In this document: piece by piece, positions 8,113 through 31,093 of the stretch
Layout: each line of letters begins with the position of its first letter
How positions within the stretch are numbered: the first letter of the stretch is position 1
DNA from: an uncultured Porphyromonadaceae bacterium
GTDB taxonomy: Bacteria; Bacteroidota; Bacteroidia; Bacteroidales; UBA12481
Assembly: GCA_964512915.1 (NCBI GenBank)
Contig: CAZEKJ010000004.1
Span: 41,347 to 105,346, forward strand
Length of the DNA: 64,000 nucleotides
Reading direction: 5' to 3'
The notes under the pieces: generated by a model
The model's database searches: none
What the model saw: the letters and a program-made list of their open reading frames with translations, nothing else
Told to the model about the DNA's origin: nothing
Translations under genes and position numbers: made by a program

Positions 8113-8133
8113 TACTTAACACTTAATCATTTT

Positions 8134-9196: not shown

Positions 9197-9259
9197 TCGA
9201 GTCGGATAAATAACCGAAAGTCTGTGGGGGCTGATCAAAGGTAGTGAATATTCTTATAT

Positions 9260-9540: not shown

Positions 9541-9586
9541 ATCAGCACGAAAACAAGTACCTTCGCTACCCAAAAGACCAGCACGC

Positions 9587-11983: not shown

Positions 11984-12006
11984 GGGCGTCCTGCGGACGC
12001 CCGTTT
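11984..12006 (+). terminator. Conserved GC hairpin (GTAGGGGCG-NN-C TGC G-NN-CGCCC RTTT family)
   Basis: gggcgtcc-tgc-ggacgccc-gttt immediately after the GH78-like stop. The TAG stop is part of the conserved gttcccgtagggg flank. Confidence 0.5.
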
Positions 12007-12020
12007 ACCCCCATTTCATG

Positions 12021-12070
12021 AATCGTGACGCGTGATGCGTGATGCGTGAAGCGAAAAAAAATCGTGACAG
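12021..12070. repeat. CGTGANS heptamer array plus A-tract
   Basis: cgtgacg cgtgatg cgtgatg cgtgaag cg aaaaaaaa tcgtgacagg. Confidence 0.9.
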
Positions 12071-12078
12071 GTTTGGTT

Positions 12079-12642: not shown

Positions 12643-12700
12643 TGGGCTATTAATTTTCCCTGATAAACCTTGTCATAATCTTGTCTTAAGAACCAAAATC

Positions 12701-13267: not shown

Positions 13268-13275
13268 GAGTTTCG

Positions 13276-16643: not shown

Positions 16644-16710
16644 GGGTCAAATTTTTCAGTAAGTGAAGATCCTGAAGAACAAGGGGGATGATCAAAGGTA
16701 CGAAAAAAAT

Positions 16711-16737
16711 CGTGACGCGTGATGCGTGACCCGTGAT
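16711..16737. repeat. CGTGANS heptamer array
   Basis: Preceded by cgaaaaaaat: cgtgacg cgtgatg cgtgacc cgtgat. Confidence 0.9.
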
Positions 16738-16743
16738 TTGTGT

Positions 16744-16762
16744 GGCGGACCCGTGGTCCGCC
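16744..16762. repeat. GGACC-CGT-GGTCC-type mini-hairpin
   Basis: ggcggacc-cgt-ggtccgcc, a perfect 8-bp stem. Confidence 0.85.
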
Positions 16763-16775
16763 CGGTATTGGGGCT

Positions 16776-17018
16776 GGGACAAAATGATAGTCACCCTCGG
16801 AGTCTGCTACAAATTGCCACTAGCTTTAGCTAGTGGTTTATGTTGATTCACAGTATTTTATGGGCTTAAGCCCAATTTTTATCTCCTGAATTTACCCAAT
16901 CAATCATCAGGAACAGAGTTGGCCTAAAGGCCTCAATGTTCTATTTATCAACGCATTCCACTAGCTAAAGCTAGTGGCAACTGGTAGTGGGCTCCAAGGG
17001 TCACTATCATTTTGTCCC
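16776..17018. other. 243-nt multi-stem structured element (candidate MITE or structured RNA)
   Basis: Terminal 21-nt inverted repeat gggacaaaatgatagtcaccc / gggtcactatcattttgtccc (1 mismatch). Internal mirrored hairpins ccactagc-ttta-gctagtgg (16817-16836) and ccactagc-taaa-gctagtgg (16968-16987). Central palindromes gggcttaagccc (16862-16873) and ggcc-taaa-ggcc (16921-16932). Confidence 0.8.
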
Positions 17019-17071
17019 ATCCATGTTTTGTCCCCCTCCAACATATAGAAGCTCCTCCCAACCCTCAATAT

Positions 17072-17119
17072 CACATTGGCAAATTGGTAAATTGGCACAT
17101 TACCACATTGGCACATTAC
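17072..17119. repeat. 8-mer tandem array (CACATTGG-type) x6
   Basis: cacattgg caaattgg taaattgg cacattac cacattgg cacattac. Overlaps the GH92 stop (17116-17118). Confidence 0.9.
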
Positions 17120-19356
17120 TTCATTGAAATTCTCAGCTCCCCGCCAGCCGTGATTTCCTGATGTGTGATGTACATCCGATCGAGTGGTTTGTCATTCAAG
17201 GTGATACTTTTAATATAGAAATTCTGCGGTGTAAGGTTTTCGGCCGTTACCGTGAATTTCTTGTCGCCCGGCAGGTTGATGCTCACTTTGCTGAACGACG
17301 GGGTGCCGATCTGGTAAATTCCGTTGGCGGGGTTCATCGGGTAAAAGCCCATGGCGCTGAACACGTACCAGGCCGACATGGCGCCGCAGTCTTCATTGCC
17401 GCACAGGCCATCGGGCTGGTCGGTATAAAGGGTGGTGCAGATCCGATGGACGATCTCCTGGGTTTTTTCCGGTGCACCGGCGAGGTTATACAGATATGCC
17501 ACATGGTGGCTGGGCTCATTGCCCTGTGCATACTGGCCCACCATGCCGGAAATATCGGGAGAGGCATTGGCGCCTTCTACCTTGGCGGTGGTATTGAACA
17601 ACGAATCGAGCCGGGCCACGAACCGGTCCCGTCCCCCCATCAGGCTGATCAGGTCATCGGGATCCTGGGGAACAAACCAGGTGTACTGCCAGGAGTTGCC
17701 TTCGGTAAAATCGTGCACATCGTGACTGCTGTAAAGCGGATTAAAATTCTGCCGCCAGCTGCCATCAGACATACGGCCGCGCATAAACCGGGTTTCCGGA
17801 TCGAATACATTCCGATAGTTCTTCGACCGGGTCATGAAGTACTGGTAATCTTCTTCCTTTCCGAGTTTCTTTGCCATCTGCGCGATACACCAGTCGTCAT
17901 AGGCATATTCCAGAGTCTGGGATACCGACTGGTTCTCCAGGTCGGCGGGAAGGTACCCGAAAGCCTTGTAGTTTTTAAGTCCGCGCCCGTCATCCAAGGC
18001 ACTCTTCTTCATATCGGAATAAGCCTTCTCATAATCAAAAGGAAATCCCTTGAGAGCTGCATCCACGATAACCGGAATGGCGTGATAACCAATCATGCAA
18101 TTTGTTTCGCATCCCTCCAGGGTCCAGACCGGCAGGAGTCCGCTTTCATCGGCATGGGCCAGCATGGCCTTTATCAGGTCCGGAATACGCTCGGGCTGAA
18201 CCAGGGTAAACAGCGGGTGTGCCGAACGGAAAGTATCCCACAGGGAGTAGACGGTATAGTTATTCCAGCCATCGGCCTGTTTAACCGTCCGTGCGCTGTC
18301 GCTGCCCCGGTACCTGCCGTCAGTATCAGAAAAAAGTGACGGGGCAATCATTGAGTGATAAAGCGCTGTATAAAAGACAGTCTTGAGCCTATTATCCGAT
18401 GTACTGGCTTCGATTTTACCTAATTCCTGATTCCACTTTTCCCGTGCAGCCTTCTTTACTTTATCGAATTTCCACTCGGAATTCTCAGTTCTCAAATTCG
18501 CCAAAGCTCCCTGCTCATCCACCGGAGAGATTCCCACTTTCATCAGCAGTTCGCCTCCTTTGCCAAAGGAGAGGATTGCCTCAGTATATTTTCCGCTCAC
18601 GTTCCTCATTCCGGGGTTCTCGAGTCCGGTTTTATATAGCATAAAAGATGAAATCGGCCGGTTGAAGACGGCTGCAAACCAAACCTGCTGATTGTTGGCC
18701 CACCCTTTGGATTTGCGGTATCCGGTTATCAGGGTATCGTTTTCAACCCTGATAAAGGTGGCAGCAGGGGCATCCCAGTTAATGGCAAAACCCAGGTCGA
18801 GCATGAGGTTGGCCGCCTCTCCCTCGGGATACCGGTACCGGTGCATGGCTGTCCGCTCCGTGGCGGTAAGTTCAACTTTAATGGGATTCTGACGGGTTTC
18901 GGCATCCCGCAGGGTGACCCTGTAATAACCGGGCGAAGCCGATTCATCATCATGGGAGAACACTGCCTTGAACCGCTGGTGAAACTCTTTTCCGCCATGG
19001 TATTCTGAAGCCGGGAGGTTCCGGGTGGTGGGCTGGAACAATATATCAGCCAGGTCTCCGATACCCGTACCGCTAAGATGCTTATGGGAGAAGCCCACGA
19101 TTATCGAATCGGAATAGTTATACCCCGAACACCAGTCCCATCCGTTTGTTCCATTATCAGGGCTCACCTGAACCATGCCAAAGGGGAGTACAGCGCCCGG
19201 AAAGGTATGGCCGTGGGCGGCGGTTCCGATGAAGGGGTTTACGTATTTTGAATAATCTTCCTGGACGGTATCGGAACAAGATGTGAGGAGGAAGGCGAAA
19301 GGAAAAAGGCGAAAGGCGAAAGAAAGACTTAAGACAAAAGACTTTAAAGAGTTCAT
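17116..19356 (-). CDS. GH92 alpha-mannosidase
   Basis: 746 aa. Canonical GH92 N-terminus VNPFIGTAAHGHTFPGAVLPFGMVQVSPDN, with full-length similarity to alpha-1,2-mannosidases. Residues 11-22 of the signal peptide are encoded by a heptamer repeat arm. Confidence 0.9.
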   Translation of the reverse strand: MNSLKSFVLSLSFAFRLFPFAFLLTSCSDTVQEDYSKYVNPFIGTAAHGHTFPGAVLPFGMVQVSPDNGTNGWDWCSGYNYSDSIIVGFSHKHLSGTGIGDLADILFQPTTRNLPASEYHGGKEFHQRFKAVFSHDDESASPGYYRVTLRDAETRQNPIKVELTATERTAMHRYRYPEGEAANLMLDLGFAINWDAPAATFIRVENDTLITGYRKSKGWANNQQVWFAAVFNRPISSFMLYKTGLENPGMRNVSGKYTEAILSFGKGGELLMKVGISPVDEQGALANLRTENSEWKFDKVKKAAREKWNQELGKIEASTSDNRLKTVFYTALYHSMIAPSLFSDTDGRYRGSDSARTVKQADGWNNYTVYSLWDTFRSAHPLFTLVQPERIPDLIKAMLAHADESGLLPVWTLEGCETNCMIGYHAIPVIVDAALKGFPFDYEKAYSDMKKSALDDGRGLKNYKAFGYLPADLENQSVSQTLEYAYDDWCIAQMAKKLGKEEDYQYFMTRSKNYRNVFDPETRFMRGRMSDGSWRQNFNPLYSSHDVHDFTEGNSWQYTWFVPQDPDDLISLMGGRDRFVARLDSLFNTTAKVEGANASPDISGMVGQYAQGNEPSHHVAYLYNLAGAPEKTQEIVHRICTTLYTDQPDGLCGNEDCGAMSAWYVFSAMGFYPMNPANGIYQIGTPSFSKVSINLPGDKKFTVTAENLTPQNFYIKSITLNDKPLDRMYITHQEITAGGELRISMK

Positions 19357-19460
19357 GGGTGATGGGTTTTATCAATGATTACAAATATACACCCAAAGCC
19401 CTCTTTATAACTTAAGATCTTAACTCTTTCTTTCGCCTTTCGCCTTTCGCCTTTCGCCTT
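19292..19460. repeat. Hairpin element with AAGGCGA heptamer arms enclosing the GH92 start codon
   Basis: Left arm 19292-19326 (aaggcgaaaggaaaaaggcgaaaggcgaaagaaag). Right arm 19427-19460 (ctttctttcgcctttcgcctttcgcctttcgcct). About 100-nt core with cttaag motifs and the GH92 ATG (19356-19354). Confidence 0.9.
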
Positions 19461-20434
19461 TATTTCTTCCCTTTTGCAAACAGATCCCACGCCAGCGAGC
19501 TGGCCCCGAGCACCGCGGAATTCTTGCTATTGAGCCCTGAGGGCAGGAGTTTGACTTTACCCTTATAGATAAACAGCAGGTTATCTTCAAATGCGCGGAG
19601 TGTTGGTTCCATAAGGAGTCCCTTTGCCAGGGTGAGCCCGCCGAAAAGAAAAATAGCTTCGGGGTTGGTATGGGCGACTACATCGGCCAGCTTCAGTCCG
19701 AGCATTTCACCTGTGTGCTCAAAAGCGCGGATAGCCAGAATGTCACCACGCTCAGCTGCTTCTGCAATATTCAGGGAGGTCATCTGATTGAAGCTAAGGT
19801 CCCTCAGTTCCGAGGGTTCAAGGGAGTCCGACATGATTTTGAAAAGGGTGCGCTTAAGACCGGTCGCTGACACGTATGTTTCGAGGCAGCCCATTCGTCC
19901 GCATCCGCACTCACGGTTGGTACGGCCCGGCCGTACAATGGTGTGCCCCACTTCGCCGGCGAAACCGTCCTGACCATAGACCAGTTTTCCGTCAATCACA
20001 ATGCCGGATCCGACCCCGGTACCGAGTGTAATGACCACGAAATTCTTCATCCCCTGTGCCGCTCCGTAAACCATTTCGCCCACTGCCGCAGCATTGGCGT
20101 CGTTGGTTACCAGCACCGGCCAGTCGGTATGCTCATGAATAAGATCTGCCAGCGGGGTTATTCCCTTCCACGCCAGGTCGGCCGGATGTTCAATGGTTCC
20201 CTTGTTGATGTTCCCCATCGGTGCCCCGATGCCTATGCCAATGACCTCAAGCGGTTCCGCTACTTTCTTTTGAAGCATTTTTACTTTCTCCCACATGGCT
20301 GCAACAAAAACTTCCGGTTCCGCAAAATTCACGGTAGAAATCCTGTCTTCTGCCAAAAAATGTCCATGGGAATCCACAAAAGCAAAGTCGGTGTTAGTGC
20401 CGCCGATATCAATGCCGAGCGCAACTTTTTTCAT
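19460..20434 (-). CDS. ROK family sugar kinase (glucokinase-like)
   Basis: 324 aa. DIGGTNTDFA ATP-binding N-terminus and the ROK zinc motif CGCGRMGCLETYVS. Confidence 0.85.
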   Translation of the reverse strand: MKKVALGIDIGGTNTDFAFVDSHGHFLAEDRISTVNFAEPEVFVAAMWEKVKMLQKKVAEPLEVIGIGIGAPMGNINKGTIEHPADLAWKGITPLADLIHEHTDWPVLVTNDANAAAVGEMVYGAAQGMKNFVVITLGTGVGSGIVIDGKLVYGQDGFAGEVGHTIVRPGRTNRECGCGRMGCLETYVSATGLKRTLFKIMSDSLEPSELRDLSFNQMTSLNIAEAAERGDILAIRAFEHTGEMLGLKLADVVAHTNPEAIFLFGGLTLAKGLLMEPTLRAFEDNLLFIYKGKVKLLPSGLNSKNSAVLGASSLAWDLFAKGKK

Positions 20435-20624: not shown

Positions 20625-20942
20625 ATGAGGATAACTGTTTTATTAGCCTTTCTGGTTGTCATGACCGGTGCCTGCAAACAGAAAACCAGTACAAATCAAT
20701 CCCTTGCCGATGCAAAACCGGTAACGGTTGAGATGGGTGTGACTGGAATGACCTGCATGGGGTGTGTGGAAACGGTTCGATCTAGCATTGCACAGCTCGA
20801 AGGTATTGATACAGTGATGGTATCGCTGGACAGTGCGAGGGCTACCGTGACGTATCGTCCCGGCAAGGTTGATACCTTAAAGATCCGCGATGCAGTAGAG
20901 CTTAACGGGTATAAAATATCGGGCATAAAAACCGTACAATAA
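20625..20942 (+). CDS. Heavy-metal-associated (HMA) domain lipoprotein, copper-chaperone-like
   Basis: 105 aa with lipobox MTGAC and the metal-binding motif GMTCMGCVETV. First gene of the respiratory cluster. Confidence 0.8.
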   Translation: MRITVLLAFLVVMTGACKQKTSTNQSLADAKPVTVEMGVTGMTCMGCVETVRSSIAQLEGIDTVMVSLDSARATVTYRPGKVDTLKIRDAVELNGYKISGIKTVQ

Positions 20943-20948
20943 GCATTT

Positions 20949-21923
20949 ATGGAAGAAGACATCAAGAAAACGGGCGACGAGGAAGAGGGGAAAATCAACG
21001 AGACTTCGCGCCGGGATTTCATGAAGAAATTCGGATTGTACGGAGCGGCAACGGTTGCCGGTTCCGCTGCATTATACACCGGGTACCGGTTCGAGAAGGA
21101 CAAGCCTAACCAGGACATGGTCAGGGTGCTCACTGAAGATAACCGTTTGGTACTGGTGCCCAAGGCCGAGATCGAGGCTATCAATCCGAGTCTGAAAACA
21201 CTTCAGACGAAGGGACGTGAAGGTATTGAAGGCCGGAGATGGGTAATGGTTATCGATCTTGCGAAATGCAGAAATGCGCGCAAGTGCGTTGATTCATGTC
21301 AGAGCGCCCACCACCTCCGTCCGTACGAATACCATATCAATACGCTGGCCATGCAGGAGTCGAAGAACACGGCGCCCTATTTCATGCCCAAGCCCTGCCA
21401 GCACTGCGACAATCCGCCGTGTGTTTCTGTTTGCCCGGTGGATGCAACCTACAAGCGCCAGGACGGAATCGTTCTGATCGACAATGAACGCTGCATCGGC
21501 TGCCGCTTCTGCATGGCCGCCTGCCCTTACTCGGCCAGGATGTTTCACTGGCAGGAGCCTCAAAACAGCGAGGAAGACAAAGGGAAAACCTACAACGTTG
21601 AGCTTAATGTTCCGCAGAAGAAAGGTACCATCTCCAAGTGCCTGTTCAGTGCCGACCGTCTGCGGGAGGGAAAGCTCCCCTATTGCGTTTCGGCGTGCCC
21701 GAACGGGGTCTTTTATTTCGGTGATGAGAACGAGGACTCAGTTACCAACGGAACCACCAAGGAGACTGTCCGCTTCAGCGAACTGATCCGGAACAACAGT
21801 GGCTACCGGCTGATGCCTGAACTGGGGACCGATCCGAGGGTTTACTACCTGCCGCCAAAGAACCGGCTGTTTGAGTTCCCCGAAGAGAGCCTTCTTGATG
21901 ACGAACATGATGATCACGTTTAA
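20949..21923 (+). CDS. Tat-exported 4Fe-4S ferredoxin-type subunit (NrfC/PsrB/ActB2-like)
   Basis: 324 aa. Tat motif SRRDFMKKFG. Cysteine clusters CRNARKCVDSC, CQHCDNPPCVSVCP, CIGCRFCMAACP and CLFSADR...CVSACP. Confidence 0.8.
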   Translation: MEEDIKKTGDEEEGKINETSRRDFMKKFGLYGAATVAGSAALYTGYRFEKDKPNQDMVRVLTEDNRLVLVPKAEIEAINPSLKTLQTKGREGIEGRRWVMVIDLAKCRNARKCVDSCQSAHHLRPYEYHINTLAMQESKNTAPYFMPKPCQHCDNPPCVSVCPVDATYKRQDGIVLIDNERCIGCRFCMAACPYSARMFHWQEPQNSEEDKGKTYNVELNVPQKKGTISKCLFSADRLREGKLPYCVSACPNGVFYFGDENEDSVTNGTTKETVRFSELIRNNSGYRLMPELGTDPRVYYLPPKNRLFEFPEESLLDDEHDDHV

Positions 21924-21935
21924 TCCCGCCAGACC

Positions 21936-24251
21936 ATGGAAATGACCAATCCTTACCAGTCAGCTGAACCCGGCCGTTTGGATCGGGTAGCTTCTGACAT
22001 CCTCCGCAACGTCAGGCTCAACAAGGGATTCATGATCTGGATGGGTTTCCTGTCCGTTGGACTTCTTGCCTGCCTTTTCGCCTACACCATACAGCTCCGC
22101 GAGGGCCTCGGGGTTACCGGTCTCCGCGACCATACCAGCTGGGGCATGTATATTGCCAACTTCGTTTTCTTTGTAGCCTCCTCCCTGATCGGCATGCTGA
22201 TCAGCTCCGTTCTCGGGCTGATCGGATTCAAGTGGGTTATCCCGATTGCACGAATTGCTGAAATAATAGCGGTGGCTTTCGCGGCAGTGGCAGGCCTCGT
22301 GATTATCAGCGACATGGGCCGCCCCGACCGGCTTCCCTATGTGTTCCTGCATGGAAGGCTGCAGTCTCCCATTCTTTGGGATGTGACTGTGGTCACCACC
22401 TATTTTCTTGTCAGCTTCCTGCTCTACTTCCTGCCGATGCTGCCCGACCTGGCAGTAGCGAAAGGCAGGATTACACATCTGCCAAAGTGGCTCCAATGGC
22501 TTTATAATATTGCCTCTTTCAACTGGATCCACAAATCGGAACAATATAAGATTCTGTTCCGGATGACGCGAACTCTGCTGATATTAATTGTACCCCTGGC
22601 CTTCGCCATTCATACGGTCACCTCCTGGCTTTTTGCAGTAACTGTAAGGCCCGGGTGGGACAGTACGATCTTTGGCCCCTATTTTATCTCAGGCGCCTTT
22701 GTTTCGGGCTCAGCCGCGGTGATCATCGCTATGTTTTTCTTCAGGAACAGCTTCAGGCTGCATAACTATTTAACGCCCTATCATTTTGATAAAATGGCCA
22801 AACTTCTTGGTTTGGTGGCCATTGTCTATTTTTATTTTAATCTGAACGAATTTCTGGTTCCGGTCTATAAACTCAAGAAATTTGAAGCGCTTCACCTTCA
22901 GGAGCTGTTTACTGGAAGTCACGCACTCCTCTTCTGGGGCACTCAGTTACTCGGACTTATTATCCCGATATTTCTCCTGTTCCTTAAGCCGATGCGGAAA
23001 CCGCTTCCGCTCACCATCATTGCACTTTTTGTCTTTGCCGGCTCCTGGCTCAAGCGGTTCATTATTGTGGTTCCGGTTCAGGAACATCCTTTCCTGCCCA
23101 AACAGAACGTTCCCGTGGAGTGGATGGTCTACACCCCCACCCTCATCGAAGTAGCTGTCACGGTTGCTTCCATGATCATGGTCCTGATGATTATCACGAT
23201 CCTGGCGAAGACCTTTCCGGTATTGCCGATCGTGGAGATTGCCGCGGAAGAGGGACCGCAGAACGCAGACAGAGGACTGCAGGAAGACAGTCAAAACGAA
23301 GTAACTGGTAACAGAGGTTCTCGGAAGAACTCAGGCGGTCTGCCGTCTGCGGTCTGCGGTCTTTTTCTGCTGATGCTGGTACCTGCTGTCTCGCAGGCAC
23401 AAACCTGGGAAACACCAGCAGAAAAAAAGACCAAGCTCGCCGATTTCAAGTTCGACGAGACGACCGTTAAGGCCGGCGCCGTGATTTACCAGGTAAACTG
23501 CAAATCGTGCCATGGCGATCCGGGCAAGAATAATGTTACCCAGCTGGTACCTCTTCCCCCTGATATCGTTTCAGAGCAGTTGCAAAGAAATACCGACGGA
23601 GAGCTATATTATAAACTGCAAACGGGGAAAGGCCAGATGCCAGCCTTTGGTATGGCGCTGACCTCGCCTGAACTGTGGCAGGTGATTGCTTACATGAGGA
23701 GTTTTAACCCAAATTACACCCAGGAGGTCGCCACAAAGGGGGGCCTTGACACACGCTACAGTGATGTGAAAATTACCTTGGCGGCGATGAATGATACGAT
23801 CCTGAAGGCCACCATATCGGGCCTGGAAAACAATATCCGCATTCCCATCCCCGCGGTTGAAGCCAGGGTTTTTGCGCACCGGTATTTTGGTCACCTTCCC
23901 CTGGATGAACCGAAATCCTCCGATCCTGCCGGCATCATTCTTTTCAACATTCCTTCCGATCTACCCGCCGATACGGCCGGAAGGGTCAAACTGATGGTCA
24001 CGCTGACGAATGAAGACCAGTTTGGTGCCGTTGAAACTGACAGCATCCTTGAATTCGGGAAGGAAACACATCCGGTAAGCCTCCGCGCTAAGAGGGCCAT
24101 GTGGAACACGGGTAACAGAGCCCCGATCTGGCTGACTATCGCCTACCCGCTCGGCCTCCTCATTGTGCTCGCAGTCATCGGTTCCATCCTCCTTCAACTG
24201 CGGGAAATATTCTATATCGGTAAAAGGAGCAAGAACGAAAATAAATTGTAA
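21936..24251 (+). CDS. NrfD/PsrC/ActC-like quinol-interacting membrane subunit fused to a monoheme cytochrome c domain and a C-terminal anchored domain
   Basis: 771 aa in one uninterrupted frame. About 440 aa of polytopic NrfD-like sequence (GVTGLRDHTSWGMYIANFVFFVASS...), then a charged linker, a TM segment (SAVCGLFLLMLVPAV), heme site CKSCHG with distal GQMPAF, about 150 aa of unknown fold, and a final TM followed by KRSKNENKL. Confidence 0.75.
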   Translation: MEMTNPYQSAEPGRLDRVASDILRNVRLNKGFMIWMGFLSVGLLACLFAYTIQLREGLGVTGLRDHTSWGMYIANFVFFVASSLIGMLISSVLGLIGFKWVIPIARIAEIIAVAFAAVAGLVIISDMGRPDRLPYVFLHGRLQSPILWDVTVVTTYFLVSFLLYFLPMLPDLAVAKGRITHLPKWLQWLYNIASFNWIHKSEQYKILFRMTRTLLILIVPLAFAIHTVTSWLFAVTVRPGWDSTIFGPYFISGAFVSGSAAVIIAMFFFRNSFRLHNYLTPYHFDKMAKLLGLVAIVYFYFNLNEFLVPVYKLKKFEALHLQELFTGSHALLFWGTQLLGLIIPIFLLFLKPMRKPLPLTIIALFVFAGSWLKRFIIVVPVQEHPFLPKQNVPVEWMVYTPTLIEVAVTVASMIMVLMIITILAKTFPVLPIVEIAAEEGPQNADRGLQEDSQNEVTGNRGSRKNSGGLPSAVCGLFLLMLVPAVSQAQTWETPAEKKTKLADFKFDETTVKAGAVIYQVNCKSCHGDPGKNNVTQLVPLPPDIVSEQLQRNTDGELYYKLQTGKGQMPAFGMALTSPELWQVIAYMRSFNPNYTQEVATKGGLDTRYSDVKITLAAMNDTILKATISGLENNIRIPIPAVEARVFAHRYFGHLPLDEPKSSDPAGIILFNIPSDLPADTAGRVKLMVTLTNEDQFGAVETDSILEFGKETHPVSLRAKRAMWNTGNRAPIWLTIAYPLGLLIVLAVIGSILLQLREIFYIGKRSKNENKL

Positions 24252-24260
24252 GATTCAATT

Positions 24261-24318
24261 AACCGGTAACCGGCAACGGGTAACCGGCAACCAGTTTTAA
24301 CCTGTAACCAGTAACAAG
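24261..24318. repeat. RGYAACY heptamer array
   Basis: aaccggtaaccggcaacgggtaaccggcaaccag...aacctgtaaccagtaacaag, between the NrfD-cyt c stop and the DoxX start. Confidence 0.9.
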
Positions 24319-24321
24319 AAT

Positions 24322-24687
24322 ATGACCGCACTAACCACCATCGGCCGCATACTATATGCATTGCCTTTTGCAGTTTTCGGGATCAACCATTTCATTATGA
24401 AAGATTTCTACCTGGGTGAGCTTACTTCATTCATTCCATTCGGAGGATACATGATCCTGCTGACCGGGGTAGTATTGTTACTCACCAGCATTTCGATCAT
24501 GACCAAAAAGTATGTGAAGGTCAGCACGCTCACGTTAGCCGCACTGCTATTTCTGTTCATTGCCACCATTCATATTCCGCAGCTGTTCGATGCGGATAAG
24601 CATATGATTGCCATGATTGCATTGCTGAAGGATGTTTCGTTGCTGGGTGGCAGCCTGATGATTGCCGGAATGACCAAAAACACGTGA
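24322..24687 (+). CDS. DoxX family membrane protein
   Basis: 121 aa, four predicted TM segments, N-terminus IGRILYALPFAVFGINHF typical of DoxX. Confidence 0.6.
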   Translation: MTALTTIGRILYALPFAVFGINHFIMKDFYLGELTSFIPFGGYMILLTGVVLLLTSISIMTKKYVKVSTLTLAALLFLFIATIHIPQLFDADKHMIAMIALLKDVSLLGGSLMIAGMTKNT

Positions 24688-24712
24688 CGCATACATGCGT
24701 CCGTTCCCGTAG

Positions 24713-24736
24713 GGGCGAGCTGCGCTCGCCCGTTTT
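24713..24736 (+). terminator. Conserved GC hairpin plus T-run after DoxX
   Basis: gttcccgtag-gggcgagc-tgc-gctcgccc-gtttt. Same flanks as 11984 with a covarying stem interior. Confidence 0.55.
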
Positions 24737-24757
24737 GCCATCGAGTAGATAAAGCAC

Positions 24758-24790
24758 AGTTAAGGTATAGTTAAGGTATAGTTAAGGGAA
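24758..24790. repeat. 11-mer tandem repeat x3 abutting the SCO1 start codon
   Basis: agttaaggtat agttaaggtat agttaagggaa, then t-ATG (24792). Confidence 0.9.
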
Positions 24791-24791
24791 T

Positions 24792-25568
24792 ATGAGACAA
24801 ATAATAGTAGTTATTTTATTAATGTCCGGTCTTTCAGGTTTCGCACAGACTGATCTGCCGGCGCTGCCGAAAATAGAGATCGGCATTGAGGAAAAACTCG
24901 GTGAAACGATTCCTCTCGGACTAAAATTCCTGAATGAATCCGGAGATACGGTAACATTGGGGCAGCTGATCGACAAGCCCACTGTTCTCTCTTTTGTATA
25001 TTTTGATTGTCCCAGCATCTGCGGACCGTTCCAGTCGGGGATTTCAGAAGTGATACCCAAGGTGGGCATGGAACTGGGCAAGGACTATCAGATTATCACC
25101 ATCAGCTTTAATCCCCAGGATACCCCGGAAAGGGCAGTTCTCAAAAAGGTTAACTATATCCAGCAAATACCTGAGGATCTGAGTAAATCATGGATATATC
25201 TCACCGGCTGGCAGGAAAATATTACCAAAATAACCGATGCAGTGGGATATCATTACAAACCTACCGGGCTTGATTTCGCACATCCATCGGCACTAATCAT
25301 TCTGAGTCCCCAGGGCAAGATCACGCGCTATCTGTTTGGAATCAGTTTTCTACCCTTCGACCTGAAAATGGCGCTGATAGAAGCCCAGAAAGGACTTGCC
25401 CGGCCAGCCATAAACAAGGTTCTGGAGCTTTGCTTTGGCTATGATAATAAAAGCCGCGGATACACCCTTCAGGTTACGAGGATCGTTGGGAGCATTACGA
25501 TTCTGGCTGCGTTGATTGTCCTGGCGGTACTGATCTTCAAGAAACGAAAAAAAACAGTTAAATCCTGA
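24792..25568 (+). CDS. SCO1/SenC family copper chaperone for cytochrome oxidase assembly
   Basis: 258 aa. Thioredoxin-like CxxxC motif FVYFDCPSICGP, a downstream conserved His (FAHPS), and a C-terminal TM segment. Confidence 0.8.
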   Translation: MRQIIVVILLMSGLSGFAQTDLPALPKIEIGIEEKLGETIPLGLKFLNESGDTVTLGQLIDKPTVLSFVYFDCPSICGPFQSGISEVIPKVGMELGKDYQIITISFNPQDTPERAVLKKVNYIQQIPEDLSKSWIYLTGWQENITKITDAVGYHYKPTGLDFAHPSALIILSPQGKITRYLFGISFLPFDLKMALIEAQKGLARPAINKVLELCFGYDNKSRGYTLQVTRIVGSITILAALIVLAVLIFKKRKKTVKS

Positions 25569-25572
25569 TATA

Positions 25573-27186
25573 ATGAGCACCAGCGAAACGCACGGTCAAG
25601 TAAGTTATCTCGAGCATCAAGGGAAGTACAAAGGGTTACTGGGTTGGCTAACATCAACCGACCACAAGAAGATTGCACTTCTGTACATGTACAGCATGCT
25701 TGTATTTTTCTCAGTGGCTGCCATACTTGGGCTACTAATGACTATAGAGAAGGCGGCACCCGGGCAGGACATCATGTCGGCGCAGCAGTATAACGGATTC
25801 TTTACCATTCATGGGGTGATCATGATCTTCATCATCGTGATTCCCGGTCTGGCTGCGGTCTTTGGCAACTTCGCCCTACCGATTATGATCGGTGCGCGGG
25901 ATGTAGCCTTTCCGAAGCTGAACCTGTTTTCCTGGTATCTGTATATCATCGGTGGCATCCTGGGCGTTCTTTCCCAGTTTGCAGGTGACGGACCTCCGGA
26001 TACCGGCTGGACCTTCTATGTCCCCTACAGTGCAGAATCCTCCACGAACGTAATATTCGCCCTTACGGCGGCTTTTATTCTCGGATTCTCAAGCATCCTA
26101 ACAGGCCTGAACTTTATTGTTACCATTCACCGCATGCGTGCTCCGGGGATGACCTTTTTCAAGATGCCTCTGTTCCCCTGGTCGCTCTATGCCACCGCAT
26201 GGATACAGTTGCTGGCAACGCCGATCGTCGGGATCACCCTGCTGATGGTCATTGCCGAGCGGGTGCTCCATATCGGGTTCTTTGATCCTGCCCTTGGAGG
26301 AGACCCGGTGCTCTTTCAGCACCTCTTCTGGATCTATTCCCATCCTGCGGTTTATATCATGATACTGCCCGCGATGGGTGTCGTCACTGAAATATTCCCG
26401 ACATTCAGCCAGAAACCGGTTTTCGGATATGGCGCCATCGCAATTTCATCCCTTGCAATCGCATTTGTCGGGTATTTCGTCTGGGGTCACCACATGTTCA
26501 CCTCCGGAATCAGCTACTGGTCGAGATGGTTTTTCTCCTTCCTCACCTTTATCGTTGCCGTTCCGAGTGCCATCAAGGTATTCAACTGGGTGAGCACGAT
26601 GTATGGCGGGTCCATCGATATGAAGCCGCCTCTTCTCTATGCAATTTCCTTTATCTTTCTATTCATGATCGGCGGCTTTACCGGACTCACCCTTGGCTCC
26701 CTGGCTACCAACATCCATTTGCATGACACCGCCTTTATCGTAGCTCATTTCCACTATATCATTTTTGGAGGGATGGGATTTGCCTTCTTCGCGGGTATCC
26801 ACTACTGGTACCCCAAAATTTACGGCAGAATGTACAGCAACCGATGGGCCTACATTGGCTGGGGATTTCTTTTTACCGGGTTTAACCTGCTCTATTTTCC
26901 CCAGTTCATTATCGGAATACAGGGCATGCCAAGAAGGTATTTTGATTATCTGCCCGAGTTTCAATGGGGCCACTTCCTCTCCCTGATCGGTGCCATTATT
27001 TTATTATCGGGCTTCATTATCATGGTATCCAACCTCATCTATCACAGGAAGAAAGGTGCCATTGCCCCGGCCAATCCGTGGAAAGGCGTAACGCTCGAAT
27101 GGCAGATACCGTCACCGCCGCCGTTAGAGAATTTCGATGAAATTCCAACCATAACAAGGAAACCGTATTTCTTTGGAAAAGATTAA
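25573..27186 (+). CDS. ctaD: Cytochrome c oxidase subunit I
   Basis: 537 aa with hallmark heme-copper oxidase blocks: FFTIHGVIMIF, GWTFYVPY, LFWIYSHPAVYIMILP, HHMF, VAHFHYIIFGG. Confidence 0.95.
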   Translation: MSTSETHGQVSYLEHQGKYKGLLGWLTSTDHKKIALLYMYSMLVFFSVAAILGLLMTIEKAAPGQDIMSAQQYNGFFTIHGVIMIFIIVIPGLAAVFGNFALPIMIGARDVAFPKLNLFSWYLYIIGGILGVLSQFAGDGPPDTGWTFYVPYSAESSTNVIFALTAAFILGFSSILTGLNFIVTIHRMRAPGMTFFKMPLFPWSLYATAWIQLLATPIVGITLLMVIAERVLHIGFFDPALGGDPVLFQHLFWIYSHPAVYIMILPAMGVVTEIFPTFSQKPVFGYGAIAISSLAIAFVGYFVWGHHMFTSGISYWSRWFFSFLTFIVAVPSAIKVFNWVSTMYGGSIDMKPPLLYAISFIFLFMIGGFTGLTLGSLATNIHLHDTAFIVAHFHYIIFGGMGFAFFAGIHYWYPKIYGRMYSNRWAYIGWGFLFTGFNLLYFPQFIIGIQGMPRRYFDYLPEFQWGHFLSLIGAIILLSGFIIMVSNLIYHRKKGAIAPANPWKGVTLEWQIPSPPPLENFDEIPTITRKPYFFGKD

Positions 27187-27195
27187 GTTAACAAT

Positions 27196-27807
27196 ATGAC
27201 GAACCCAATGCACGACGAACATCACGATCACCTGGGATCCAAGATGGGGATGTGGCTGTTCATTTTCACCGAACTGTTCCTTTTTGGAGGATTGTTCCTG
27301 GTATATGCCGTTTTCAGAGCCAAATATGGCGAAGATTTCCACCATGCAGCTGAAGAGTTGAACGTCTTTATCGGAACGCTCAATACGGTGGTGCTGCTGA
27401 TCAGCAGTATGACCGTTGCCATGTCGATCTCAGCCATCCAGAAAGGTGACTCAGGAAGAGCGATCAGGCTGCTGCTCCTCACGATAGTTCTGGCTCTGGT
27501 TTTCATGGTTAACAAATACTTCGAATGGGGACATAAATTCGAGTTCAAACTCTATCCCGGATCACCGGTCCTTGGAAACCTGCCAAAAGGTGAGCTTCTT
27601 TTCTTCGGGCTCTATTTTATGATGACGGGACTGCATGCCCTCCACGTGATAATTGGTTGTGTCCTGCTGGGAATCACCATCCCGAAGATTGCCAAAAAGC
27701 AGGTCACCAGTGAACGCTTCACCTTTCTGGAAAACGCAGGGCTATACTGGCACCTGGTGGATTTTATATGGATATTCCTGTTTCCGATGATGTATCTTAT
27801 TACATGA
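27196..27807 (+). CDS. ctaE: Cytochrome c oxidase subunit III
   Basis: 203 aa. MGMWLFIFTELFLFGGLF and the C-terminal YWHLVDFIWIFLFP are typical of subunit III. Confidence 0.85.
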   Translation: MTNPMHDEHHDHLGSKMGMWLFIFTELFLFGGLFLVYAVFRAKYGEDFHHAAEELNVFIGTLNTVVLLISSMTVAMSISAIQKGDSGRAIRLLLLTIVLALVFMVNKYFEWGHKFEFKLYPGSPVLGNLPKGELLFFGLYFMMTGLHALHVIIGCVLLGITIPKIAKKQVTSERFTFLENAGLYWHLVDFIWIFLFPMMYLIT

Positions 27808-27925
27808 TGGGTTTCGGGTATCAGGTATCGGGTTTGGGGTTTGGGGTTTGAGGTTTGGGGTTTGAGGTTTGAGGTTTGGGGTTTATTTGAGATTTGTTTT
27901 TTGAGGTTTGAGATTTGAAAATACA
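27808..27925. repeat. G/T-rich GGTTTGR/GGGGTTT array between coxIII and coxIV
   Basis: gggtttggggtttggggtttgaggtttggggtttgaggtttgaggtttggggttt... Four GGGG runs lie within 27830-27884 on the coding (+) strand. Confidence 0.9.
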
Positions 27926-27928
27926 GTT

Positions 27929-28207
27929 ATGGAGAAGAATCATATTTCAAGTTATACGTCGCACGGGATTGTGCTGACGGCTTTGCTGGCACTTACGGCA
28001 GTATCAGTTTTGGTTGCAGAGCTGCACCTTGGAGCTATTTCGGTTGCCGTGGCGCTCCTGGTGGCGTCAATTAAAGGGACAACCGTGCTTACCTACTTTA
28101 TGCACCTGAAATACGAGAGCACCTTTTTCAAAGTGATGGTGGTGGGTGTTTTTGTGATGTATGCACTCATAATCATATTTACTTTTTCCGATTATTTATT
28201 TCGCTAA
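27929..28207 (+). CDS. Cytochrome c oxidase subunit IV family small membrane protein
   Basis: ORF 27908-28207 opens with TTG inside the repeat array; the ATG at 27929 gives MEKNHISSYTSHGIV... Three TM segments in the prokaryotic CoxIV position. Confidence 0.6.
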   Translation: MEKNHISSYTSHGIVLTALLALTAVSVLVAELHLGAISVAVALLVASIKGTTVLTYFMHLKYESTFFKVMVVGVFVMYALIIIFTFSDYLFR

Positions 28208-28222
28208 TAAAAAACAAGCACC

Positions 28223-29143
28223 ATGTTTGAAGGAGCATCTAACCTGGCTGACGGCGTTGACCGGGCGTTTGTTTTCATCTTTTCGATATCGGCCTTTTTC
28301 ATTATCGGCATCACCGCATTCATGATCTGGATCGTGATCCGGTATAACCGGAAAAAGGGAAAGCCCGCCATGCAATTTACCGGCAATAACACCCTTGAAG
28401 CAATCTGGATCGTGATTCCGCTGATTATTGTATTGGCCATGTTCTATTATGGATGGATCGGTTTTGCCCCGATGAGGAAAGTGCCGGCCGATGCCATGAA
28501 AGTGACTGCCATCGGAAGGATGTGGGAATGGTCCTTCGATTATGGCAACGGGAAGATTTCCAAAATCATGGTGGTCCCGGCCGATAAGCCGATAAGAGTG
28601 GACCTGCTTTCGGTTGATGTCAATCACAGTTTTTTTGTACCGGCATTCCGGGTCAAGGAGGATGTGGTGCCCGGATACGATAATTACCTGTGGTTCTCCG
28701 CCTTCAGGGTTGGCGAATATGATATTTTATGCACGGAGTATTGTGGGTTGATGCACTCAGCCATGGTCTCAACCGTAAAGGTGGTTCCGGAAGCTGAATT
28801 CATCGCCTGGCTCGACTCCCTTCCTGCAACCGGAGATATTCCTGAGCCGGAAGGTCTGACCCTGCTGAAGAATACAGGGTGCATCGCCTGCCATTCCCTC
28901 GATGGAGTCCGCCTGGTAGGTCCCAGTTTTAAAGGTTTCTATGGCAAGACCCACACCGTGGTTGAAGAGGGTGCGGAGAAGGAGGTTGAGGTTAATGATG
29001 AGTATATCAGGAGTTCTATTCTTGAACCCAACAAACAGGTAGTCAAGGGTTTTAGTAAAGGATTAATGCAGGCGTACGGCAATGTGGTGAATGAAGATCA
29101 GATCAAGCTGATGATTGAATATCTCAGGACCCTGAAAGAATAA
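28223..29143 (+). CDS. ctaC: Cytochrome c oxidase subunit II with C-terminal cytochrome c domain (caa3-type)
   Basis: 306 aa. CuA site HSFFVPAF...CTEYCGLMHSAM and C-terminal heme site GCIACHS. Confidence 0.9.
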   Translation: MFEGASNLADGVDRAFVFIFSISAFFIIGITAFMIWIVIRYNRKKGKPAMQFTGNNTLEAIWIVIPLIIVLAMFYYGWIGFAPMRKVPADAMKVTAIGRMWEWSFDYGNGKISKIMVVPADKPIRVDLLSVDVNHSFFVPAFRVKEDVVPGYDNYLWFSAFRVGEYDILCTEYCGLMHSAMVSTVKVVPEAEFIAWLDSLPATGDIPEPEGLTLLKNTGCIACHSLDGVRLVGPSFKGFYGKTHTVVEEGAEKEVEVNDEYIRSSILEPNKQVVKGFSKGLMQAYGNVVNEDQIKLMIEYLRTLKE

Positions 29144-29158
29144 TACCCTATATTCCCC

Positions 29159-30007
29159 TTGCTGGCTGCCATTCTCAAACTGATCAAGTATAAGCTGTCT
29201 CTGGCGGTAACCTTGTCGGCCACCATGGGATTTTTCCTGTTCCGTAAGGGCCCCGACCCGGCCCTGCCAGTGCTTATTGCCGGCGTGTTCATGCTGGCAG
29301 GCGGATCCGCCGCACTGAATGAATATCAGGAAAGAAAATTGGATGCCATGATGGGCCGCACCCGCAACCGGCCAATACCGTCCGGAATCATCAATCCCCT
29401 CTCAGCACTCGCTATTTCAGCCGGCTTAATCCTGACGGGCCTTCTCCTGCTCTCCCGCTTCGGCATCACCCCAGTTTTTCTTGGGGCGTTCAACCTATTG
29501 CTTTATAATGGTTTATACACCCCGATGAAGGTACGCAACTCATTTGCGGTGATTCCGGGAGGACTTGTGGGAGCGATCCCTCCTGTTATAGGCTGGAGCG
29601 CTGCAGGCGGGCCTCTGTTTCATCCCAATATCCTGTTTATTGCAACCCTGATGTTCCTGTGGCAATTGCCCCACTTCTGGCTGTTGATTATACGGTATGG
29701 GAAGGAATATGAAGCGGCAGGATTCTCTACCCTTAAAAGGTATCTCGACGACAATCAGATTAAACGGCTGATCTTCTTTTGGATGGCCGTTTCCTCGGTT
29801 TTCCTCCTGACGGCACCGCTGTTTGGCATCCTGATTGATCTGTGGGTTTTCCTTCTCCTGGCACTCCTGAACGTGCTCTTTATCGGATTCTTCTATTACG
29901 TGCTGTTCCTGAATCCATCGGAGAAACGGATCCGGCTCATCTTCATCCTCACCAACGTATTTCTGACGGTGGTGCTGGGGATGCTGATATTGAATTCCCT
30001 TGCGTAA
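29159..30007 (+). CDS. ctaB: Protoheme IX farnesyltransferase (heme O synthase)
   Basis: 282 aa, polytopic UbiA-family protein. Motif NEYQERKLDAMMGRTRNRPIPSG. Starts at TTG 29159, 16 nt after the ctaC stop. Confidence 0.75.
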   Translation: MLAAILKLIKYKLSLAVTLSATMGFFLFRKGPDPALPVLIAGVFMLAGGSAALNEYQERKLDAMMGRTRNRPIPSGIINPLSALAISAGLILTGLLLLSRFGITPVFLGAFNLLLYNGLYTPMKVRNSFAVIPGGLVGAIPPVIGWSAAGGPLFHPNILFIATLMFLWQLPHFWLLIIRYGKEYEAAGFSTLKRYLDDNQIKRLIFFWMAVSSVFLLTAPLFGILIDLWVFLLLALLNVLFIGFFYYVLFLNPSEKRIRLIFILTNVFLTVVLGMLILNSLA

Positions 30008-30021: not shown

Positions 30022-30068
30022 GGGCGACCTGCGGTCGCCCATTTAAACCGGGCGACCGCAGGTCGCCC
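30022..30068. terminator. Two copies of the GGGCGACC-TGC-GGTCGCCC hairpin in opposite orientation between convergent genes
   Basis: 30022-30040 (+ sense, after ctaB, followed by attta). 30050-30068 (minus sense, after the SIS gene, followed by ggttt on the minus strand). Confidence 0.45.
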
Positions 30069-30079: not shown

Positions 30080-31093
30080 CTAGACGAAAAATTCGTTGCC
30101 GATTTTGCGGGCGCGGGTGGGCTTGTCGAGATCGATGCCCAGAGCCAGTCCGATCTCTACCAACAGGTTCCAGCCGGCAGCCAGCTCCACATAAGGAGCC
30201 ATTTTCCCCCCGTCAGGAATAATAAAAGTGGGGAAAGAAGTCTGCCTGGATGATATCGCAATCACCTTCATGCCGACACCCTTGACGAGGCACTCCATGA
30301 ACTTTTCCTCTTCACTATGGAAGGGCTCAACAATGATCACCACCTCATTCTTGTCCATCACTTCCTCGATACCGTGCACTGCGTAAGTACCTTCCAGGAA
30401 ATCAGATTTCTTGCGGGTGATTTCGTTGGTTTTGAGGGTCAGCTCTTCAACTACTCCATTGTTCCTGCCGGCGAAATAGATCTTGTCGGCATTCTTTGCC
30501 GCCAGGATTATTTCAGGATCAATCACGGAGGTCAGGGCGGTATCAATCTGGTCGGGCAGCTCATCAAACCCGCACATGCACTTGCCGAGCATCTGGCGGA
30601 TCATGGCATCGTAAAAAAGGCCCTGTTCGATCACCGACTTGGTTGCTGCCACCGCATCTTCCTTGCCGCAGTTCAGTACATGGGTCTCATGTGCAAGCTC
30701 GGCCAGCTTGGTATTTTCATTGGCAGTCAGTCCGAAAAGCGCATCATGCCCCTCCTCGCGGAGTTTCATGAAAAGTCTTACCACCTCCTTGGTTTTCCCG
30801 GAGTTGGAGGCGCCGAAAACAGCAAGGTCCTTAAGCGCATACTCCATCGCCTGGGTAGATCCATCGGTATAAACCGGAATTTTCGCGCCCCATTTCAGGA
30901 TGTCATACATCGCCCGTTTGGCAGGAAAAATCCGGCTGCTGCCCTCACCGGTGAGAAAGAGGCCCTTTTTCGCCATGGCCTTTTCGGCATACGAGGCGGC
31001 CACCATCGGGTCAAATTTCCTGACTACCTCAGTTGTTTCCATCATTTCACGCACGAGTGCGAAGGTTGCGTACTTGCTGTCTTGTAGGTTCAT
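30080..31093 (-). CDS. SIS domain sugar-phosphate isomerase/deaminase-like protein (AgaS/GlmS-C-like)
   Basis: 337 aa with two SIS-like halves and the phosphosugar-binding block FGASNSGKTKEVV. Confidence 0.65.
   Translation of the reverse strand: MNLQDSKYATFALVREMMETTEVVRKFDPMVAASYAEKAMAKKGLFLTGEGSSRIFPAKRAMYDILKWGAKIPVYTDGSTQAMEYALKDLAVFGASNSGKTKEVVRLFMKLREEGHDALFGLTANENTKLAELAHETHVLNCGKEDAVAATKSVIEQGLFYDAMIRQMLGKCMCGFDELPDQIDTALTSVIDPEIILAAKNADKIYFAGRNNGVVEELTLKTNEITRKKSDFLEGTYAVHGIEEVMDKNEVVIIVEPFHSEEEKFMECLVKGVGMKVIAISSRQTSFPTFIIPDGGKMAPYVELAAGWNLLVEIGLALGIDLDKPTRARKIGNEFFV

Follow-up and report, generated by a model that had tools for sequence, protein, structure and literature searches.

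How electrons pass from menaquinol to a cytochrome c oxidase is the question raised by a ten-gene locus in a stretch of 64,000 nucleotides (nt) of DNA from an uncultured Porphyromonadaceae bacterium (contig CAZEKJ010000004.1, positions 41,347 to 105,346 of the forward strand; the whole stretch is referred to as the window). The locus encodes an iron-sulfur (FeS) protein, a 771-amino acid (aa) protein in which a NrfD-type membrane domain is joined to a cytochrome c, and a haem-copper oxidase. Cytochrome c oxidases are encoded by many Bacteroidales and Marinilabiliales that are considered anaerobic or microaerophilic, and the menaquinol-to-oxidase route in such organisms is not addressed in the searchable papers. 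The analyses described here lead us to think it fairly likely that the FeS, NrfD and cytochrome parts, together with a membrane-anchored beta-sandwich, constitute a minimal menaquinol:cytochrome c oxidoreductase dedicated to haem-copper oxidases. A compact conserved module right before A-type and cbb3-type oxidase genes provides a concrete, testable answer, and it probably replaces larger complex III enzymes in many Bacteroidales.

The ten open reading frames (ORFs) listed in the original prediction were all found at their coordinates on the plus strand with tight spacing (intergenic gaps of 4-104 nt), and genes on the opposite strand at 19460-20434 and 30080-31093 bound the unit (Table 1). 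Domains of the locus proteins were assigned by Pfam and NCBIfam models. A NrfC/PsrB-type FeS protein with a signal for twin-arginine translocation (Tat) is encoded 12 nt from the fusion gene, and the adjacency of such a protein to a NrfD subunit is the arrangement of a 'dimeric redox module'. It had been stated that ActA, ActB1 and ActF of alternative complex III (ACIII) are not encoded at the locus, which was confirmed; these proteins and ActD were found neither in the locus nor elsewhere in the 64-kb window, and the window likewise contains no second NrfD or FeS paralogue, no ACIII genes and no bc1 genes. The CxxCH motifs of the locus are one in the 771-aa fusion and one in CoxII, with no others.

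A search of the protein database with the 771-aa query yielded 26 full-length fused clusters with 51-89% identity from NCBI, JGI, ENA and Logan assemblies. One of the clusters comes from a complete 5.38-Mb chromosome (locus L001), and the reading frame was kept across a variable linker in all 26 proteins. NrfD-only homologues (about 448 aa, about 70% identical) far outnumber the fused ones, and in the split loci a gene for a cytochrome of about 300 aa with the C-terminal domain trails the NrfD gene by 0-17 nt or overlaps it. The fused form occurs in two of the 14 species-representative genomes with the module, all uncultured Bacteroidales metagenome-assembled genomes (MAGs), and the split form is present in the cultured Marinilabilia rubra (L019). 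In a neighbour-joining (NJ) analysis of the NrfD domain with 200 bootstrap replicates, the two fused clades A and B were each monophyletic (197/200 and 200/200) and were grouped together in 0/200 replicates, while the fused clade of the window joined unfused sequences and left out the other fused clade in 200/200. Because the fused clades are separate and the outgroup is unfused, the most parsimonious reading of the tree is that the fusion is derived and arose at least twice independently. The predicted fusion is thus genuine, and the survey of its spread that had been called for shows it to be a minority state, split genes being the usual form. That the ORF might be an assembly or sequencing artefact joining two genes could be argued from the many relatives with two closely spaced or overlapping genes; the 26 fused clusters from independent projects, the complete chromosome and the monophyly of the fused clades refute it.

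The NrfD domain was further characterised, since it had been described as ActC-like. It scored 106 bits on PF03916 (cut-off 25.8), and its sole PDB sequence matches by phmmer were four ActC chains (1e-44 to 1e-48 over about 400 residues, end to end), with ActF at only E = 5.9 and PsrC absent among the matches. The AlphaFold2 model of the 771-aa protein, built from a 98-sequence alignment (predicted local distance difference test score, pLDDT, 82.9), contains ten transmembrane (TM) helices within residues 30-426, as in the ten-helix NrfD fold of ActC, and Foldseek gave template-modelling scores (TM-scores) of 0.81-0.84 for the four ActC chains and 0.64-0.69 for ActF, indicating that the ActC likeness is sound. 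The best NCBIfam model was DsrP, at 115-118 bits against a cut-off of 350, and QrcD scored 52-53 against 570. Because genuine ActC, used as control, reached 58-59 bits on the DsrP model and the query reached 118, itself below the cut-off, the domain is by curated thresholds intermediate between the ActC and DsrP families and a member of neither. When 1.84 billion representatives were searched with the query, genuine ActC was outscored by about 100 clusters (50% identity). The phylogenetic placement proposed by the original prediction was obtained in part: in an NJ tree of 125 sequences, built without DsrP, QrcD and PsrC references, canonical ActC formed a distant clade separate from the family of the query.

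The functional residues of Rhodothermus marinus ActC were then mapped onto the family (PMC5928083). The quinol-pocket residues W82, I86, F89 and D169 (R. marinus numbering) and about two thirds of the proposed ActC proton half-channel residues are retained and invariant. At five positions, 35 members of the family invariantly carry another residue: Asp for His139, Leu for Asp253, Ile for Pro136, Lys for Glu394 and Asn for Tyr323. Only Asp169 of the triad His139/Asp169/Asp253 is kept (D149 in the query), the other two being Asp126 and Leu232. The ActC states, all three of the triad included, are kept in 12/12 sequences of the ActC clade, and the nearest outgroups carry the same residue states as the family of the query. 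By tree placement and residue mapping the domain is a distinct NrfD subfamily, a lineage separate from canonical ActC, and descent from within ActC was ruled out; the domain probably has a quinol site on the periplasmic side, with different polar ligands. The description of the module as a stripped-down ACIII was therefore abandoned.

The FeS subunit carries the twin-arginine motif SRRDFMKKF and was ranked by NCBIfam as DsrO first (187.5 bits, cut-off 200), followed by TtrB, QrcC (126, cut-off 400) and NrfC. Only Fer4-type Pfam domains were matched. Its best PDB matches were PsrB (2e-31) and the C-terminal FeS domain of ActB (7e-19, the alignment being confined to ActB residues about 770-960), so that by these scores it is closer to DsrO and PsrB than to ActB. 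The Tat signal and the four cysteine groups of the predicted four-cluster ferredoxin were recovered, with 14 canonical cluster cysteines rather than 16. Groups II and III are complete, group III reading CIGCRFCMAACP, and groups I (C-x2-A-x2-C-x3-C) and IV (C-x2-S-x12-C-x3-CP) are each one cysteine short. This pattern is invariant in 17 sequences, comprising 16 orthologues and the cbb3-linked locus L022, with all other cysteines retained; among remoter relatives it was not seen, L021, L024, L025 and L026 having all cysteines and L023 a Glu in group I. Loss of the second cysteine of such a motif is a classical [3Fe-4S] signature, as in NarH, succinate dehydrogenase and the C102 variants of DmsB. 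Because the remaining cysteines are fully conserved, the clusters are probably retained. In ActB, group III is degenerate (CxxTxxC) and forms a [3Fe-4S] cluster beside the quinol site (PMC5928083); here, group III being complete, the membrane-proximal cluster should be [4Fe-4S]. The wire predicted from the motifs would thus consist of two [4Fe-4S] clusters followed by two higher-potential [3Fe-4S] clusters, an order that would suit downhill transfer from menaquinol to cytochrome c.

Two tandem FeS-NrfD-sandwich/TM units were observed in L026 (7812-16380). In both copies the twin-arginine signal lies on a separate 79-82-aa protein encoded just upstream of a signal-less FeS gene, and the homologous Tat-signal segment is fused to the N-terminus of the FeS protein of the window. 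The L026 arrangement may represent a split Tat signal or hitch-hiker export.

Between the NrfD domain and the cytochrome, the model places a cytoplasmic helix (residues 432-456), a disordered linker of low pLDDT (457-469) and the TM11 helix (471-485). The TM11 segment resembles a signal peptide, with the basic n-region RGSRKNSGG, an h-region and a -3/-1 site at VSQA followed by Q. The linker is variable and the signal-like segment conserved in the 26 fused proteins, which have a small -3/-1 site before Q(D/E/T)W. Because unfused cytochromes begin with signal peptides homologous to this segment, TM11 is, by its alignment, the retained signal peptide of a once-separate cytochrome, and the fused protein may still be cleaved there. 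The haem ligands of the cytochrome domain (C522-x2-C525-H526 and Met568) are invariant across the fused family. The domain matched ActE (6lod_E) at 1.3e-5 by sequence and 8e-6 by fold, and c552 and c6 matched equally or better. Since both termini of ActC are cytoplasmic (PMC5928083), the modelled TM helices would place the cytochrome and the beta-sandwich in the periplasm and the basic tail in the cytoplasm. The order of linker, TM segment, cytochrome, TM segment and cytoplasmic tail that had been proposed from the sequence agrees with the ten helices, TM11 and TM12 of the model.

What had been called an unknown anchored domain is indeed anchored by a TM segment, and is now confidently predicted to be a beta-sandwich: the C-terminal 301 residues modelled alone gave a pLDDT of 91.6, with a generic transthyretin/Ig-like fold by Foldseek. 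Its identity with ActD, which forms the C-terminal extensions of genuine ActC proteins (PF11821), was considered and rejected, the fold being all-beta and PF11821 having no match on any locus protein, as against 1e-41 to 1e-47 for the ActC-ActD fusions of the ActC clade. A hidden Markov model (HMM) built from the beta-sandwich and TM12 matched the C-terminal extensions of five outgroup NrfD proteins of 620-740 aa without CxxCH (P0244, P0251, P0259, P0260 and P0273; 1e-21 to 1e-28), separate proteins encoded right after NrfD in L023, L025 and L026 (1e-22 to 1e-31) and the 293-aa cytochrome of L022 (4.5e-50). The sandwich-TM part is thus a separate gene in L023, L025 and L026, is fused to NrfD in L021, L024, P0251, P0259, P0260 and P0273, is fused to the cytochrome in most Bacteroidales and in L022, and is fused to both in the window; in L023 all three membrane-side parts are separate genes. 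On these HMM matches the beta-sandwich with its TM segment is a conserved ancestral fourth part, and the original description as a three-module enzyme falls one conserved subunit short. The interchange of such Rosetta-stone fusions is strong genomic evidence that the four parts form one complex, and the sandwich may be a strut positioning the cytochrome against the FeS subunit. A wider-clade NrfD domain naturally fused to a C-terminal Fer4_11 FeS domain was also found in the representative library (P0268, 765 aa), a further Rosetta-stone link between the membrane and FeS subunits.

The order HMA, FeS, NrfD, cytochrome, small TM protein, SCO1, coxI, coxIII, coxIV, coxII, ctaB was conserved in every Bacteroidales locus long enough to show it (14 species genomes, L001-L003, Marinilabilia rubra and L020), so that the direct link between module and oxidase noted in the window is syntenic in every sufficiently long related locus. 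In L022, a sister clade with a 53% identical NrfD, the genes for the FeS, NrfD and cytochrome/sandwich proteins immediately precede ccoS, fused ccoNO, ccoQ, ccoP, ccoG, ccoH and ccoI, and this cbb3 link strengthens the reading that the module feeds cytochrome c oxidases. It bears also on the direction of flow. The module might run in reverse in the manner of Qrc, with periplasmic electrons passing through the cytochrome to reduce menaquinone: the NrfD domain scores twice as high on the DsrP model as genuine ActC and also matches QrcD, the DsrP and QrcD families work in anaerobic electron input, and the hosts are for the most part Bacteroidales with an anaerobic or microaerophilic way of life. 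Linkage in operons to O2 reductases of two kinds speaks for electron flow towards oxygen, all curated DsrP and QrcD cut-offs are missed by a wide margin, and class I His/Met cytochromes usually lie far above menaquinone in potential; we therefore regard reverse operation as highly improbable.

In L020, on a 7.2-Mb chromosome, cydAB and a DUF4492 gene (3784-6699) are the immediate upstream neighbours of the module-oxidase unit and run divergently from it, both O2 reductases (bd and A-type) being clustered there. A partial ORF upstream of the FeS gene of L024 (1-318) ends in VECTVKCGAGHDDMKM, resembling a cupredoxin-type copper site, and the downstream cytochrome has 329 aa and two CxxCH; these features suggest that this lineage, with 56% GC, has a different set of electron acceptors. 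In the Prolixibacteraceae MAG locus L018 (8366-10711), an ORF of about 780 aa has a weakly similar cytochrome c domain near residues 546-616 (32% identity over 80 residues) and is otherwise unrelated to the module.

The downstream genes encode an A-type, caa3-like oxidase with subunits I, II (CuA and cytochrome c), III and IV all present. As read from the translation, subunit I has YSHPAVY at the position of the A1-type GHPEVY, which is the A2-type signature in the established classification. Subunit II has the CuA site C-x-E-x-C-x3-H-x2-M and the cytochrome motif CIACH, its CxxCH lying at residue 224 of the stop-to-stop ORF. The listed subunit IV ORF starts at a TTG; since orthologues have 92-94 aa and the NCBIfam match starts at residue 10, the real start is probably the ATG at 27929. 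The oxidase of the original prediction is thus present, while its designation as caa3 assumed the haem type: ctaB is encoded in the locus and ctaA is not. In anaerobes, related oxidases of the A2 type are cc(o/b)o3 (PMC5492636), and with ctaB as the only such gene in the locus the haem could be of the o/b type instead of a.

Three accessory genes accompany the oxidase. The HMA-domain protein, for which the NCBIfam CopZ-like matches were below cut-offs, is a probable lipoprotein and a candidate periplasmic copper chaperone for oxidase assembly; its gene heads all cox-type loci and was not found in outgroup loci. The 121-aa membrane protein had been labelled DoxX, a label that found no support, with no Pfam match even at E<=10 and no NCBIfam match, and with five orthologues likewise without a precomputed Pfam match. 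Its orthologues (47-95% identity) occur in all cox-type loci and in none of the outgroup loci. Together with SCO1, these neighbours raise another interpretation, in which the module supplies reductant for the biogenesis of haem-copper oxidases or c-type cytochromes instead of carrying the main respiratory flux. Assembly genes always flank the module. In the window these are HMA and SCO1; L021 has genes for a Cu-ATPase and a CopZ-like protein, L022 has ccoS and ccoI, and L023 has ResB/CcsA and hemA. Such genes are commonly found in oxidase operons anyway, a four-cluster wire with an ActE/c552-like class I cytochrome is typical of bulk electron transfer, and the assembly reductant pathways known to us use thiol-disulfide proteins and not NrfCD-type complexes. 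A role in biogenesis is accordingly considered very unlikely.

Table 1. Coordinates of the features of the locus in the window
Feature	Position	Strand	Evidence
HMA-domain protein; N-terminal signal, Cys17, GMTCxxC Cu(I)-type motif	20625-20942	+	Pfam HMA 1.5e-12
Tat-exported FeS subunit, 324 aa, four Cys groups	20949-21923	+	Fer4_11 2.7e-23, 82.5 bits (cut-off 26.2)
771-aa fusion protein	21936-24251	+	NrfD, residues 60-382 (2.9e-30); Cytochrome_CBB3, residues 511-587 (5e-12)
NrfD/ActC-like domain, aa 1-436	21936-23243	+	Pfam NrfD 2.9e-30; ten TM helices in model
Cytoplasmic amphipathic helix, variable charged linker, TM11	23244-23396	+	Model; alignment of fused proteins
Class I monohaem cytochrome c domain	23397-23735	+	Cytochrome_CBB3 5e-12
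Beta-sandwich (about 609-705), short linker, TM12 (731-770), basic tail	23736-24251	+	Model; no Pfam match
Small membrane protein, 121 aa, about four hydrophobic segments	24322-24687	+	Conserved orthologues only
SCO1/SenC copper-delivery protein, C-terminal TM anchor	24792-25568	+	Pfam SCO1-SenC 2.7e-10
Haem-copper oxidase subunit I	25573-27186	+	COX1 3.8e-145; TIGR02891 644.6 bits (cut-off 670.75)
Oxidase subunit III, short, 203 aa	27196-27807	+	Pfam COX3 2e-22
Oxidase subunit IV, caa3-type	27908-28207	+	COX4_pro; TIGR02229 61.8 (cut-off 37.25)
Oxidase subunit II with C-terminal cytochrome c	28223-29143	+	TIGR02866 158.3 (cut-off 147.7); COX2, COX2_TM, Cytochrom_C
Haem O synthase CtaB	29159-30007	+	UbiA 4.6e-40; TIGR01473 181 bits (cut-off 210)
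Two perfect 19-nt hairpins 3' of the ctaB stop, GGGCGACC-TGC-GGTCGCCC and its complement	30022-30040 and 30050-30068		Direct sequence reading

The mechanism that we propose is as follows. The FeS protein, NrfD, the cytochrome c and the sandwich/TM anchor would form one membrane complex that oxidises menaquinol at the NrfD pocket and has the cytochrome c domain of oxidase subunit II as its electron acceptor. Electrons would enter the membrane-proximal [4Fe-4S] cluster held by cysteine group III and travel along the four-cluster wire, with the distal clusters, probably [3Fe-4S] and of higher potential, making the path downhill. The tethered monohaem cytochrome c, held in place by the sandwich and TM12, would then pass the electrons to the haem c of CoxII, to CuA and to the binuclear centre. 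In the window, the NrfD and cytochrome genes have become fused in frame, with the signal peptide kept as TM11. The data show the identities of the domains, their topology and conservation, the synteny with oxidases of types A and C and the interchange of fusions; from these we infer the direction of flow, the cluster types, the docking sites, a supercomplex with the oxidase and any proton pumping.

Several observations weigh against this mechanism. Of the charged triad of ActC one third is conserved, and ActD and ActF, two subunits implicated in ACIII coupling, are absent from the window. The assignment of the two distal clusters as probably higher-potential [3Fe-4S] is a motif-based one. Some members of the wider family do not adjoin an oxidase (L021, L023, L025 and L026): no oxidase was found within 9-10 kb in L025 and L026, the neighbours of L021 are the Cu-ATPase and CopZ-like genes, and a multihaem cytochrome lies near the ResB/CcsA and hemA genes of L023. 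Lastly, a NapC/NirT-like hexahaem protein encoded at 60887-62386, 31 kb from the locus and the only multihaem ORF in the window, could provide a second menaquinol-to-periplasm route in the same organism. The last two points, and the description of stand-alone NrfCD modules as multifunctional (PMC3534657), are also what speaks for a general-purpose menaquinol dehydrogenase serving periplasmic acceptors, for instance further cytochromes or reductases, and co-regulated with an oxidase that would itself be fed mainly by a canonical ACIII, bc1 or a NapC/NirT-type enzyme encoded elsewhere. The strict oxidase gene order in every Bacteroidales locus examined and the independent cbb3 link in the sister clade argue against such a role, as does the cytochrome, which is membrane-anchored, not soluble, and thus limited to nearby partners. 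We consider a general-purpose dehydrogenase unlikely, and a dedicated menaquinol:cytochrome c oxidoreductase remains the preferred reading.

A larger claim may be put forward more tentatively. Possibly, though in our estimate not probably, the module adds to bc1/b6f, bcc and ACIII a fourth kind of quinol:cytochrome c oxidoreductase that had gone unrecognised. It would consist of three to four subunits (an ActC-related NrfD, an FeS wire of two [4Fe-4S] and two [3Fe-4S] clusters, the sandwich/TM part and a tethered monohaem cytochrome), would, in a large branch of the Bacteroidota that is mostly 'anaerobic', be the sole link from menaquinol to the A-type or cbb3-type oxidases, and would be joined to the oxidase in an obligate supercomplex. 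Quinol dehydrogenase activity of lone FeS/NrfD modules, with periplasmic cytochromes as acceptors, is already established (PMC6303296, PMC3534657). A four-part, oxidase-coupled family with this cysteine pattern is not described in the searchable literature, which included a review of the NrfD family (PMC8076601); subscription-only papers on ACIII gene clusters lay outside this scope. If the proposal is correct, the module is a natural minimal version of the ACIII/NrfD machinery, with one NrfD and no ActA, ActB1, ActD or ActF, and would be useful for asking which parts quinol oxidation needs and whether a single NrfD conserves energy. Spectroscopy and structural work would have clear handles in the changed pattern of FeS ligands and in the interchangeable fusions, and a cultured host with the split form is available in Marinilabilia rubra.

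As for the surroundings, the 19-nt palindromic hairpin GGGCGACCTGCGGTCGCCC and its complement, separated by 10 nt, are found between ctaB and the SIS-domain gene that converges with it and are likely a bidirectional terminator closing the unit; the pair could alternatively resemble a small repeat element. The 499-aa hexahaem protein is encoded on the plus strand and has six CxxCH, a NapC/NirT-type N-terminus (Cytochrom_NNT, 2.2e-11) and c3/c7-like regions, and its neighbours are a URO-D-like gene (59569-60696) and a radical-SAM/Fer4 gene (62543-63451, minus strand). Positions 1-20000 and 30000-60000 of the window are dominated by genes for glycan degradation, including glycoside hydrolases of families GH92, GH95, GH125, GH78 (rhamnosidase) and GH29 (two fucosidases), along with TonB-dependent receptors with DUF4249 partners and a protein with a type IX secretion system (T9SS) tail, surroundings that are typical of polysaccharide-degrading Bacteroidales. 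A TseH-like effector of the type VI secretion system is encoded at 2786-3493.

Among known systems, the closest solved relative of the membrane subunit belongs to ACIII of R. marinus and Flavobacterium johnsoniae, which forms a supercomplex with a caa3 oxidase. Both systems have a ten-helix NrfD-type quinol subunit, a periplasmic Tat-exported FeS wire and a monohaem cytochrome c, which in the module resembles ActE no more than c552 and c6; both have their genes beside an A2-type oxidase whose subunit II carries a fused cytochrome c, and both presumably act as menaquinol:cytochrome c oxidoreductases. Unlike ACIII, the module lacks ActA (the pentahaem subunit), ActB1, ActD, ActF and ActG at the level of the locus; its NrfD branches outside the ActC clade, with Asp and Leu in place of His139 and Asp253 and with changes at several channel positions. 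Its FeS subunit has 324 aa and no B1 domain, in contrast to ActB (about 1000 aa with an N-terminal molybdopterin-like B1 domain), and shows the opposite cysteine pattern, with the proximal motif complete and two distal motifs degenerate. The cytochrome is anchored by a TM segment through the beta-sandwich, not by lipid as in ActE.

The NrfCD-type modules (E. coli NrfCD and Mros1571-1572 of Melioribacter roseus), reviewed as dimeric redox modules (PMC6303296, PMC8076601), likewise combine an FeS protein and NrfD without a molybdopterin subunit as a quinol dehydrogenase for periplasmic cytochromes. They differ from the present module, which has a dedicated anchored cytochrome, a sandwich/TM subunit, ten instead of eight TM helices, a distinctive cysteine pattern and fixed operons with haem-copper oxidases. 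DsrJOP of DsrMKJOP comprises the same three kinds of periplasm-facing components, and DsrO and DsrP are the best-scoring NCBIfam models; membership of DsrOP was rejected on scores below both equivalog cut-offs and on the genuine-ActC control, and the locus has no DsrM, DsrK or DsrJ genes. The module cytochrome is moreover a monohaem class I protein versus the trihaem DsrJ, and the context is oxygen reductases versus sulfite reduction. QrcABCD resembles the module in its ten-helix NrfD subunit, in its periplasmic site for quinone and in its FeS subunit, which has one [3Fe-4S] cluster. Its physiological direction is the opposite, neither its hexahaem QrcA nor its molybdopterin-like QrcB is encoded near the module, and the QrcC and QrcD scores together with these absences exclude membership.

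The architectural counterpart of the fusion lies in unrelated families, cytochrome b and Rieske protein as against NrfD and FeS proteins. In the b-c1 polyprotein FbcH of Bradyrhizobium and in actinobacterial bcc-aa3, as in the fused form found in the window, the quinol-oxidising subunit is co-translated with a cytochrome c, an internal signal peptide is kept, and a tethered cytochrome takes the place of a soluble carrier to the oxidase.

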